Shown: positions 2,151-6,271 of the stretch, piece by piece
Layout of the letters: every line of letters starts with the position of its first letter
How positions within the stretch are numbered: the first letter of the stretch is position 1
Origin: an uncultured cyanobacterium
GTDB lineage: Bacteria > Cyanobacteriota > Cyanobacteriia > CAKZMO01
Direction of reading: 5' to 3'
Assembly: GCA_963719515.1 (NCBI GenBank)
Contig: CAVRCJ010000020.1
Coordinates: 1-64,000, forward strand
Length of the DNA: 64,000 nucleotides
Notes under the pieces: model-generated
Seen by the model: only the letters and a program-made list of their open reading frames with translations
Told to the model about the DNA's origin: nothing
Database searches by the model: none
Position numbers and translations under genes: made by a program

Positions 2151-3641
2151 TTGTCCTCAAGCTGGCCCGCTAATGCATCACATGCCTGGTTGAACACATT
2201 GCAAGATTCCAGCCCACTAGAATTTTTACAGTCAGTTACGCCGCAAAGTACTGAATCGGATATCACCTATAAGGTTGTTTTGCCACTCCTCAAGGTGCTT
2301 GGATATCACAGTACCGACTGGAAATCTCAGGCGGTGATTGGCAAGAAAAAAGCGGATCTGATTATTTGCCCCGCTAGCTCGTTGCCATACTGTCCTCCCT
2401 ACTTGATTGTTGAGGTGAAATCCCCCAAGAAAAATATTTCTCAGAGCGTATGGCAAATCAGTCACTACATGAGGCAGTCCCATGCCGCGCTAGGGCTACT
2501 GATCAATGGCTATAATTTCATAATTCTCTATCACAACCAAGGGAAAATAGCTACAGTAGCTGAATACTCCCAGGCAGCATTTATCGAAGATTTTGAGCGG
2601 GTTTATAAGCTTCTCTGCAAAACGACATGCACGAAGGTCGAAAATGCTCTACAAGTCACTCAACAAAGAGTTAATCTGAAGTTTGCCAATTCAATGTCTA
2701 CGCTGTTTGAAAGTCAAAGCTTACAAACCTTGATTGACCAAAGTAACTCTTCTATGTTAAATCTTTTCCGAAAATCATCAAATAACGTCAACAAGAGGCC
2801 GTCTATGATTATTACCGTTTTCAACAACAAAGGTGGAGTAGGAAAGACCAGTCTAACAATTAACTTGGCAGCTACGCTTGCTAAATTGGGCAAGCGAGTT
2901 CTACTCATCGATATTGATGCCCAAGCTAACCTAACCATGGGCTTAGGAATTGACCCGCTCAACGACATAGAGCTGAAGGGAAAGAAAGACATCACTCACT
3001 TGCTCCTTGAACCAAAGACAAAGCTGAACGACGTCGTTTATCAAAAGCGATGGACAGATATTCAGCTGGATGTTGTTCCATCCCATATTCGCTTGAGCGA
3101 CAAGGAAACAGAGCTAATCCAAACAGTTGACAGCGATCGCCTATTGGTTAAGAAGCTAAGAAATCATGACTACGACTTCGTCTTCATCGACCCGCCACCG
3201 TCATTTGGTAAAGTCAACAGAATATCGCTGATGGCTTCTTCAGGAATTTTAATTCCGACTCAGCTGTCTCCCTATCCAATTCGGGCATTAGAATATGTGT
3301 TCTCGCAGGTTGAAAAGGTATCTGACTTTAAAGACGAACCCTTAAAGATTTTGGGAATTGCGGTGAGTATGTACGATCAGCGCGCGAACAAGTTCAATTC
3401 CTCAATGGAGGAAGAGCTTCAAGAAGTGCTGTCTAAAAGTAATTACAGTGATCGGGTCGATCTTTTTCCAGAAAATACCTGGGTACCCCGGCTCAACGTG
3501 ATTTCTAAGTGTCCGCAAGAAGGCTATCCGCTTCAGCAGGCTGAGTTTGACGATAACCTAAATTCGCAAGAGCGTGAAACCGCTCAGGCGGCCATCGAAC
3601 GGTTAGAGAATCTTGCCAATCATTTAATTGCTGTTGTATAG
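2151..3641 (+). CDS. Fusion of an HsdR_N-like PD-(D/E)xK nuclease domain and a ParA/Soj ATPase
   Basis: N-terminus ESDIT..VVLPLL..LGY, KADLII, IVEVK, QISHY, GLLING. C-terminus has the deviant Walker A NNKGGVGKT, LLIDIDAQAN and FVFIDPPP. Start codon uncertain. Confidence 0.85.
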   Translation: MSSSWPANASHAWLNTLQDSSPLEFLQSVTPQSTESDITYKVVLPLLKVLGYHSTDWKSQAVIGKKKADLIICPASSLPYCPPYLIVEVKSPKKNISQSVWQISHYMRQSHAALGLLINGYNFIILYHNQGKIATVAEYSQAAFIEDFERVYKLLCKTTCTKVENALQVTQQRVNLKFANSMSTLFESQSLQTLIDQSNSSMLNLFRKSSNNVNKRPSMIITVFNNKGGVGKTSLTINLAATLAKLGKRVLLIDIDAQANLTMGLGIDPLNDIELKGKKDITHLLLEPKTKLNDVVYQKRWTDIQLDVVPSHIRLSDKETELIQTVDSDRLLVKKLRNHDYDFVFIDPPPSFGKVNRISLMASSGILIPTQLSPYPIRALEYVFSQVEKVSDFKDEPLKILGIAVSMYDQRANKFNSSMEEELQEVLSKSNYSDRVDLFPENTWVPRLNVISKCPQEGYPLQQAEFDDNLNSQERETAQAAIERLENLANHLIAVV

Positions 3642-3656
3642 GAGGTCACACTAGCC

Positions 3657-4547
3657 ATGAGTCAGGATCTTCGCCGGGATCTAATTGGTAAAAATCTAGG
3701 GATTAAGCCCATCAATCACGGGCAAGTTTACAGCTTTCAGGTTGCCCTACCCGATCAGAAGAAGCAGCCTATACCCTTAGAAACGCGACAGGTTATCGAA
3801 ACTAGCTTCCTTACCCACGGCAGCAATATATCTTCTCTCATCATCCGGCGCACTGACAACTATGACGATGAGGACATCGAGTACGAACTCGTCTATGGCG
3901 CCGACTGGCTTCAAGTAGCACAAGAATTAGAGATTGAAAAAGTGTGGGCTTGGGTATTCGATCTTACTGATGAGCAGGCGATCGCCACTGCGGAAGAGAT
4001 GGAAAGGTTGTCTAATGGCAAAGGTCCTATTGTCTCCCCTAACGTCACTGACCCCGATATTGAAACACTCATTGAGAAGAAACTTCAGCTCGCTACGGAT
4101 TCTATCAAGGCTACGGTAAGCCATGCGCTGAAAGAGACGAAAGAAGGGCTTGATGACAAGCTAAAGGTTCTCAATTATCAGATGAACAATCTGACTGAAT
4201 CTCTGGATCCAGATAGACTGAGGCAAATTGCAGATACGTTAGACTACATTGAGTCGCTTTTAACCGGCGGAAAGCTAAAAGATCCAATTGATTTGTTGAA
4301 TGCGTCAGACCAAGATATCGGAGTAGCGCTTAAGAAATCTAAGACTAGCGAGACGCAGGTAAAAGCCGCTATCCGAGCCGTCAACAAGTGGAAAAATTCT
4401 AAGCAAGGACTAAGCTGGGAAAATATAGAGCGTTCATCTAAAGGAAGTAAGAAATCCTCAGACAAAGTCCCTGGCTTTGGCAAAACGACTTATACGAGTC
4501 TGTGGCGCGTGGCCTCTATTCCTGGTGACCCTAAAGACACACCGTAG
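3657..4547 (+). CDS. Degenerate ParB-like N-terminal domain + coiled coil + probable HhH (ComEA-like) DNA-binding tail
   Basis: SLIIRR...YELVYGADWLQVAQELEIEKVWAWV parallels ParB PLIVR..YELIAGERRLRAA. Tail has PIDLLNASDQDI and VPGFGKTT. GGAGG RBS at 3641-3645. Confidence 0.6.
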   Translation: MSQDLRRDLIGKNLGIKPINHGQVYSFQVALPDQKKQPIPLETRQVIETSFLTHGSNISSLIIRRTDNYDDEDIEYELVYGADWLQVAQELEIEKVWAWVFDLTDEQAIATAEEMERLSNGKGPIVSPNVTDPDIETLIEKKLQLATDSIKATVSHALKETKEGLDDKLKVLNYQMNNLTESLDPDRLRQIADTLDYIESLLTGGKLKDPIDLLNASDQDIGVALKKSKTSETQVKAAIRAVNKWKNSKQGLSWENIERSSKGSKKSSDKVPGFGKTTYTSLWRVASIPGDPKDTP

Positions 4548-4563
4548 GAGAATCACCGTCGCC

Positions 4564-5142
4564 CTACCGCATCGGCCTACCAAACGTCTGGGTCCAGTAA
4601 TGCCCCCACCGCTCATTCCCAGAATCATTCGGCACGTTGGCATAGCCGATGCCAATATGCCTGAAGCTCGGGTTTAGCATATTCGCCCTGTGCCCAGGAC
4701 TGTTCAGCCACTGATTCACCGCACCACGGGCCGTAGAAGAGCCAGCCGCCGCGTTTTCTGCCGCCAATGAATATCGATAGCCGACTCGACGAAAGCGATC
4801 GCCGACGGAAGAGCCATTAGACCCAGTGTGGCTAAAAAAGTCATTACCCGCCATGTCTTGACTGTGGGCTTGAGCCGTCCGCTTCAGCTTATTGTTAAGC
4901 TTCAACGGCCTGAGCCCTTCCCTGCGCCTTAAGCGATTTGTAATCCGTAGAACCTGGCGCACAAAGCGCCGGCGCTGTCTCTGGGCCACCGGGGTGTTTG
5001 CCACCGCGTCGACGGGCCTGCTGCTGCGGCTTGTGAGTCTAAAATTGGCGCTAGGCTCGAGTGGCGTAGGGGCAGCGGCTTGATTGGCCCGGTTTTGACG
5101 GGCTGGGGAAGCTGGGGAACGGGACGAATCTAGCTGGCGCAT
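4564..5142 (-). CDS. CAP/SCP domain protein
   Basis: TNRLRRREGL.PL, AQAHSQDMA..FFSH, AENAA, WLNSPGHRANML, HYWTQTFG. Confidence 0.92.
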   Translation of the reverse strand: MRQLDSSRSPASPARQNRANQAAAPTPLEPSANFRLTSRSSRPVDAVANTPVAQRQRRRFVRQVLRITNRLRRREGLRPLKLNNKLKRTAQAHSQDMAGNDFFSHTGSNGSSVGDRFRRVGYRYSLAAENAAAGSSTARGAVNQWLNSPGHRANMLNPSFRHIGIGYANVPNDSGNERWGHYWTQTFGRPMR

Positions 5143-5152
5143 GACGACGGCC

Positions 5153-5246
5153 TTGAATTGATCTGCAATGGATTAGTTTGTACTGAGTTAGTCTGTTGAG
5201 TTATCTGTGCTGAGCTGATCTGCACTAAACTGAATCTGCACTGAAC
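5153..5246. repeat. Degenerate ~15-bp tandem repeat, about 6 units (consensus cTGAgyTgaTCTGca)
   Basis: ttgaattgatctgca/atggattagtttgta/ctgagttagtctgt/tgagttatctgtg/ctgagctgatctgca/ctaaactgaatctgca. Confidence 0.7.
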
Positions 5247-5326
5247 AAATGCCAAGACCTTTTCCGACGGCCAAAAGTTCCCGTCGCTCTGATCGGGCAG
5301 CCCAAAGCACCTCAGGCGAGAGGTCT

Positions 5327-6271
5327 TTAGCCGTAGCTGGGAGAAAAGCGATCGCATCCAGTGACCGGAGAGTTAGACTGACCCTGTAGCGGGCAGTCTC
5401 GACAGCTGCAGATGGCGCAGTTGATGGGGTTGGCGAGGGTCATCACGGGATAAAGGCTAATATTTTGCCGAATAAAGCCCTCGATTTCCGTTGCTTTCAG
5501 GGTCTGGTCGATCACAATGACCTGCTGGATGTCGAGGCGCTGGCGCAGCCGGTTAATCTCGATCAGCGTTTGGCCGAAGGGCATAGGGCGGGTTTGGATC
5601 GTGACGATTGCCTGCTGGGGCTGGCTGTGAAAGCAGGGAGGAGGCTCCTGCTCAAAATAATCTTTGTACTGCAGCGTCACAGTGCCGTCGTCGTAGCGGC
5701 GGCAGCGAATATAGCGCTGAAAGGGCAGCGATGAGCGAGCAGAATACCACCACGATTTGTGCCAGGCCTGGTGGGGTAGCTTTAGGATAGCCTGCACCTG
5801 GTCTGCAGGCAGCCGAGCCTGACTTAGCGCTGTCTGCGCCTGCTCAAGGGACACCTCGCGCACGAGCGTGCTCAAAGGCGTTTCGTAGCGCCAGCGCAGC
5901 TGCCAACGGCGGCGAGGCTCTGAAAAGGCGTCGACCGGAGGATTACAGCCAACAGTCGCTAGGGTGCATTGAATCGCCTCGAATTCAACAATGCCGTCGG
6001 CTACTAGGTCTCCGGCAGGGACACCAACCCGGGTAGAAACCGCCCCTATACGCGTTGAGGGCATCAGCGGTGGGGTACAGCTCGACAGTAGCGATCGCAG
6101 CACTGGGGCGTCCGCTAGCGCCAGCGCCAGCCGAATTCGCTCGACGCTGTAGCCACTGGTGCGATCGCGATCGCAAAAGGGGACGACAGACGCCGCCTGG
6201 GGAGAAAGGGACTGCGGCGTCTGGGAAGAGACCGATTGTGAAGAGAACGATGACGGGCGCTGGTCGACCAT
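5327..6271 (-). CDS. Hypothetical protein with a C-terminal Cys cluster
   Basis: Long ORF; C-terminal CAICSCRDCP...GC. Confidence 0.7.
   Translation of the reverse strand: MVDQRPSSFSSQSVSSQTPQSLSPQAASVVPFCDRDRTSGYSVERIRLALALADAPVLRSLLSSCTPPLMPSTRIGAVSTRVGVPAGDLVADGIVEFEAIQCTLATVGCNPPVDAFSEPRRRWQLRWRYETPLSTLVREVSLEQAQTALSQARLPADQVQAILKLPHQAWHKSWWYSARSSLPFQRYIRCRRYDDGTVTLQYKDYFEQEPPPCFHSQPQQAIVTIQTRPMPFGQTLIEINRLRQRLDIQQVIVIDQTLKATEIEGFIRQNISLYPVMTLANPINCAICSCRDCPLQGQSNSPVTGCDRFSPSYG

Follow-up and report, generated by a model that had tools for sequence, protein, structure and literature searches.

The locus raises the question of what a ParA ATPase that is fused to a restriction-type nuclease does together with a ParB-like protein, and whether the pair belongs to a system that is already known. 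The window, which is the whole 64,000-nucleotide stretch of DNA that was analysed, is part of a cyanobacterial genome of 5.28 Mb (21 contigs, 100% complete). A preliminary description reported a two-gene cassette with a 15-bp gap and a GGAGG ribosome-binding site between uvrC and a convergent CAP gene, and all of these elements are present in the sequence. Gene 1 (2151..3641, + strand) encodes the REase-ParA fusion, gene 2 (3657..4547, + strand) encodes its ParB-like partner of 296 amino acids, and the GGAGG of gene 2 (3641..3645, + strand) overlaps the stop codon of gene 1. The upstream flank is uvrC (77-2065), which was named from its sequence, and the convergent CAP gene (4564-5142) matches PF00188. 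Further along the window (5327-6271, - strand) is a 314-aa gene with a Cys-rich end and no Pfam match, and a search of 5 relatives found it in all of them.

Read from the TTG at 2151, gene 1 encodes 496 amino acids. This start is probably too early, and TTG 2190 or 2199 is the more probable one, because close relatives begin near residue 14-20 and residues 1-19 are modelled with a pLDDT below 50. The database version of the protein (P0070) begins at residue 44, and the invariant E35 would be lost from it. The cassette had been called AT-rich from counts of 21/60 and 42/60 G+C; the counts are exact, but both come from extreme 60-nucleotide stretches. The two cassette genes have G+C contents of 43.7% and 46.0%, whereas uvrC has 59.0% and the window as a whole 56.6%. 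GC3 is 0.48 in the cassette and has a median of 0.68 in the genome, which places the cassette in the lowest 2.5% among 2287 long ORFs. No flanking repeats or target duplication of note were found at the cassette. The uvrC site is not syntenic in the congeners, so that no empty site is definable.

The nuclease-ParA fusion and its ParB-like partner

The N-terminal part of gene 1 encodes an HsdR_N-type PD-(D/E)xK nuclease domain (2223..2624, + strand, approximately residues 25-158) that features E35, D69, E88, K90, Q102, Y106, and N119-G120. The alignment revealed that D69, E88, K90, Q102, and Y106 are invariant in 68/68 full-length relatives, and a fold search with the predicted structure matched the domain to HsdR, BpuSI, and DrdV, which bears out the complete catalytic set proposed for it. 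A sequence search of solved structures with the nuclease domain returned chance or coiled-coil matches only. The nuclease domain is followed by a helical connector (approximately residues 159-201) and a short, disordered and variable linker (residues 201-216), which were delimited from the predicted structure and the alignment (2625..2798 together, + strand). The region had been described as a low-complexity linker, and this did not hold: residues 157-201 are mostly two helices (pLDDT 73-87 by block) and disorder is confined to approximately residues 201-215. The ParA/Soj ATPase domain (2799..3641, + strand, residues 217-496) contains NNKGGVGKT, DIDAQAN, and IDPPP, and the ParA is intact as described, with KGGVGKT, IDIDAQAN, and IDPPP all present. 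N226, V230, and Q258 of this domain are invariant in 68/68 relatives. The mean identity to relatives is 66% for the ParA domain and 47% for the nuclease domain.

The model of the gene 2 protein has a mean pLDDT of 81.5 and features a ParB-N domain, long helices, and a compact C-terminal domain. The ParB-N domain (3657..4016, + strand, residues 1-120) has the CTPase fold and matches Noc, ParB, PadC, and KorB in the fold search. This agrees with the ParB-like fold that had been reported together with a GADW sequence in place of GERR, and all three CTP motifs are in fact degenerate: QPR, GERR, and ENLQR/ENxQR are each replaced when compared with the canonical ParB proteins of loci L138 and L140. 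An arginine at positions 83-84 is found in 0/69 relatives, N57, R64, E77, and G81 are invariant in 69/69, and H21 is kept in 67/69. The protein is thus predicted from its sequence to be a ParB that lacks CTP function and keeps its polar residues. Two long helices (residues 135-179 and 185-202; 4059..4262, + strand) are likely to form a coiled coil for dimerisation in the predicted structure, and the mean identity to relatives in this region is 19%.

The C-terminus of gene 2 is an exchangeable helical module (4278..4547, + strand) that is predicted to be a DNA-binding tail, with a pLDDT of 86-97 by block over residues 211-290. The window-type tail is found in 36/69 gene 2 relatives, and in others its place is taken by HHH_3 or Rho_N/HeH. 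A scan of 44 gene 2 relatives placed Rho_N over the cut-off in 14 and HHH_3 in 5, with sub-threshold Rho_N/HeH matches in 5 more. The window-type tail resembles ComEA by eye, a comparison with the ComEA-type tails of relatives by hhalign gave a probability of 24% (E 8e-4), and the ESM Atlas produced a lead of 0.77 to HHH_3 clusters. The Pfam HhH families matched 0/36 window-type tails at E<=0.1. The fold-search matches to whole gene 2 fall on the ParB-N domain and on the coiled coil rather than on the tail, and a sequence search of solved structures with gene 2 and its tail gave chance or coiled-coil matches only. The tail is weakly HhH-like by these measures, and it is possibly a divergent (HhH)2 domain.

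Distribution, chromosomal sites and turnover

The search found 77 loci, of which 76 are cyanobacterial or from bins and have a near full-identity architecture; L077, an archaeal locus that matches solely in the ParA part (25% identity), is excluded from every count. Gene 2 lies directly behind gene 1 in 72/76 loci, at a spacing of -38 to +102 bp, and the remaining 4/76 end at contig edges within 123 bp of gene 1, so the co-occurrence that had been proposed as a check was found. The distribution is patchy, as had also been anticipated: gene 2 was found in 10/40 sampled relatives, 1/4 congeners (80-93% complete), and 28/251 genomes of the phylum, 4 of these 28 being genes of a sister clade whose match rests mostly on the tail. 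It was found in 0/107 genomes of the largest family sampled. The sole carrier among the four congeners has the cassette at another site, with a nucleotide identity of 73% compared with 86% for uvrC. The carriers include many filamentous genera. Plasmids yielded no match to the cassette at E<=1e-30, and no match in viral contigs was confirmed. GC3 is below that of the flanks in 71/71 loci with enough flank, a count that includes kin that are not independent. Genus-level synteny and the reach of the clade into Gloeobacteraceae fit long vertical descent with loss.

Most neighbours are ordinary genes, and they remain syntenic within several genera; across the loci, no cluster of neighbours encoded on the same strand as the cassette was seen to recur. 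The suggested enrichment in defence islands was not seen: 12/142 neighbour representatives match PADLOC at E<=1e-10, mostly through apparently generic domains, a count that has no baseline and leaves 23 more representatives unscanned. PADLOC and NCBIfam contain no model for the pair and returned generic ParA matches only. The statement that no methyltransferase lies nearby is correct, as the only methyltransferase-like motif found in the window is approximately 58 kb away. The same applies to the parS palindrome, with 0 sites in the 5.28 Mb genome at <=2 mismatches to a parS consensus, a search that a divergent site would escape. PF02195 (ParB_N) has no match in the host genome at E<=0.01, and gene 1 is the host's best AAA_31 match. 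A second, divergently oriented ParA of approximately 294 aa is located upstream of the cassette in 14/76 loci (L014, L025 at 4817-5701 on the - strand, L027, L029, L034, L041, L042, L046, L048, L050-L053, and L055), often beside an ileS-like gene; in a quick tree it branches with neither nuclease clade.

Even at 91-95% identity between their gene 1 proteins, cassettes can differ in their tails. The pairs, which were chosen because their tails differ, are L030 (Rho_N)/L032 (window-type), L038/L032, L020/L022, L020/L023, L039 (HHH_3)/L037 (Rho_N), L040/L072, and L044/L045. A sister REase-ParA clade (approximately 30% identity) is accompanied by an arginine-less ParB of its own, and the window-type tail is found in 4 of its loci. 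In three g31 genomes the sister-clade cassette sits behind a desaturase-like gene (74-77% identity), and the same gene precedes the window-clade cassette in L030, L031, L032, and L070; the sister clade thus occupies the same chromosomal site as the window clade does in other genomes. The quick tree (56 rows, L142 skipped, with long-branch warnings) places both nuclease clades apart from canonical ParA with an SH-aLRT of 98. Among 26 related ParAs that were scanned, RloB was found on two, P0222, which is in the sister clade, and P0307, and on none of the window's own clade. The nuclease is absent from L069 and L139. In genome G031 (L134, L125, and L139) the relatives of gene 1 and gene 2 are approximately 1 Mb apart, and this gene 1 looks intact; in addition, the genome has a ParA-ParB pair without an effector (L139), which belongs to the sister clade.

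Further arrangements were observed among the relatives. A three-gene form arises where the cassette is followed by a further ParB-like gene (362-374 aa) whose tail is of the Rho-N type. This was observed in L031 (8304-9392), and the same extra gene (L113-L122) lies behind the cassette of the sister clade in the 3 g31 genomes that were checked. In the g31 genomes this gene belongs to the window's clade and is carried by 9/9 genomes; the reading of these gene 2 copies as orphans was rejected from their position in the three genomes checked. The same g31 genomes contain further nuclease-like ParA genes (L141:586-2649 and L143:1072-3242) that are more distantly related and have ParB-like partners, and one genome can therefore hold several such cassettes. 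L073 is a broken cassette with a truncated ParA and ParB-N. The cassettes in L066 and L126 are frameshifted, which may be due to sequencing errors.

Proposed function and competing explanations

The inference of repurposed partition machinery is upheld by the conserved nuclease fold and residues, the lost CTP motifs of the ParB, and the patchy distribution. The cassette in the window is very probably a member of effector-ParAB, and it is on balance likely to act in defence against foreign DNA through an ATP-gated nuclease. ParA forms dimers upon ATP binding, and each HsdR-type domain contains a single active site. In the proposed mechanism the tail of gene 2 would bind foreign or abnormal DNA, and gene 2 would dimerise via its coiled coil and act as a static adaptor rather than a CTP-cycling clamp. 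Its N-terminal domain would dock on the ParA-ATP dimer and thereby recruit ParA, and the ATP-driven ParA dimer would pair two single-site nuclease domains so that the DNA is cut. The invader would be destroyed or the infected cell would die, and the outcome would not be classical restriction-modification because there is no methyltransferase. A complex model of the ParA dimer with ATP and ParB-N scored 0.58 compared with 0.00 for the best control, with a run agreement of at least 85% and a partner pLDDT of at least 79. The mark used for such models was reached by 116/157 solved and 2/215 mismatched pairs, and the passes that score 0.60 or under comprise 18 solved pairs and both mismatches. The model lends weak support to the docking of ParB-N on ParA, and its score may reflect likeness to solved ParA-ParB complexes. 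The defence reading is otherwise backed by the invariant catalytic residues in a domain of 47% mean identity, the pairing of the two genes, the exchange of tails and effectors, the sister clade at a shared site, the patchy occurrence, and the low GC3. The mostly ordinary neighbours, the signs of vertical descent, the good conservation of the ParA domain (66%), the separated genes in G031, and the loci that lack the nuclease weigh against it.

One competing explanation was proposed with the class itself (bioRxiv 10.64898/2026.10.19.760177): an inactive ParB would clamp invader DNA and ParA would coat it, blocking replication or transcription, with the nuclease as a backup that kills or stalls the cell. 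The variation of the effectors, the nuclease-less ParA-ParB pairs (L069 and L139), and the retention of N57, R64, E77 (69/69), and H21 (67/69) in gene 2 are consistent with such a coat. It is nevertheless rather unlikely here: regular use of the nuclease is suggested because the catalytic set is invariant in 68/68 full-length relatives, and the three degenerate CTP motifs argue against a nucleotide-closed clamp. A housekeeping or developmental role in DNA handling, either as a substitute for chromosome positioning or in programmed nucleoid degradation in filamentous cyanobacteria, is conceivable because the host has no match to canonical ParB. The standing of gene 1 as the best AAA_31 match, the chromosomal location without plasmid matches at E<=1e-30 or confirmed viral contigs, and the stable synteny within genera point the same way. 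This role is improbable, however, for a cassette that was not found in 223/251 phylum genomes or in 3/4 congeners and that has no parS-like site. Nor would a fixed target in the cell's own DNA easily explain why cassettes that are nearly identical have swapped tails.

The tight coupling of the two genes, the low GC3, the many different chromosomal sites, and the lack of a methyltransferase would also suit a selfish addiction module, with the nuclease-ParA as its toxin and the ParB-like protein keeping that toxin inactive. Such a module would be expected with little confidence, since plasmids and viral contigs gave no match, the flanks carry no notable repeats, and in G031 a gene 1 that looks intact has been kept at a distance from its partner. 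Returning to defence by an ATP-gated nuclease, a more specific version of it can be put forward tentatively as a methylation-free surveillance switch, in which a CTP-less ParB would serve as the plug-in sensor with three interchangeable tails (one of them barely recognisable as HhH-like), the ATP sandwich dimer of ParA would be the licensing step that pairs two HsdR-type nuclease domains, and cassettes and tails would turn over at fixed chromosomal sites in cyanobacteria. If the switch reading is true, this would be a ParA/ParB pair that cuts DNA instead of moving it. The questions posed are whether the ParA switch gates the nuclease and whether the tail sets the target. The window provides a compact member with intact catalytic residues, and together with the natural tail-swap variants it makes the prediction for the class directly testable. 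A working system could also help to limit the transfer of DNA into filamentous cyanobacteria.

Comparison with known systems

The preliminary description considered the system undescribed, which fails because the architecture has been named effector-ParAB (ConB1 clade) by Li, Burroughs and Aravind (section 15; bioRxiv 10.64898/2026.10.19.760177). According to the text on this class, it consists of an operonic ParA-ParB pair with an enzymatic effector, most often an REase, directly N-terminal to ParA. The effector slot varies (e.g., RloB), the ParB is predicted to be inactive with polar residues retained, and a variable C-terminal HhH or Rho-N HeH replaces the HTH. The same text reports that effector-ParAB is common in cyanobacteria and enriched in multicellular taxa, and that the PriB1/ConB1 ParA is marked by an N before Walker A, a V within it, and a Q two residues after DxD. 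The immune role given there is a computational prediction, and no experimental study of effector-ParAB was found within the literature collection searched.

The cassette in the window shares with this class, as described in the text devoted to it, the operonic coupling, the N-terminal REase, and the inactive-looking ParB, and RloB as an alternative effector and the HhH and Rho-N tails are seen among its relatives at the family level. The ParA marks are present as N226, V230, and Q258, but they are not discriminating because the canonical ParAs of L138 and L140 also have GGVGKT. The cassette differs in its window-type tail, which is shared by 36/69 relatives and which Pfam does not recognise as either HhH or HeH. 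The main-text passages on effector-ParAB mention neither tail swaps between cassettes that are nearly identical, nor three-gene forms, nor the replacement of one clade by its sister at the same site. The present analysis adds the tail differences at 91-95% gene 1 identity, the sister clade at the same site, and the lower GC3 in 71/71 loci.

The pair resembles chromosomal ParABS (Soj/Spo0J) in the ParA fold and motifs, the ParB-N fold, and the gene order. It is unlike ParABS in that a nuclease is located on ParA, gene 2 lacks QPR, GERR, ENxQR, and the HTH, and no parS-like site was found. The nuclease fold and the D...ExK...QxxxY set are those of type I HsdR and the type IIG enzymes BpuSI and DrdV; however, the helicase motor, the methyltransferase, and the specificity subunit of these enzymes are missing from the cassette, and the nuclease is coupled instead to a SIMIBI ATPase.
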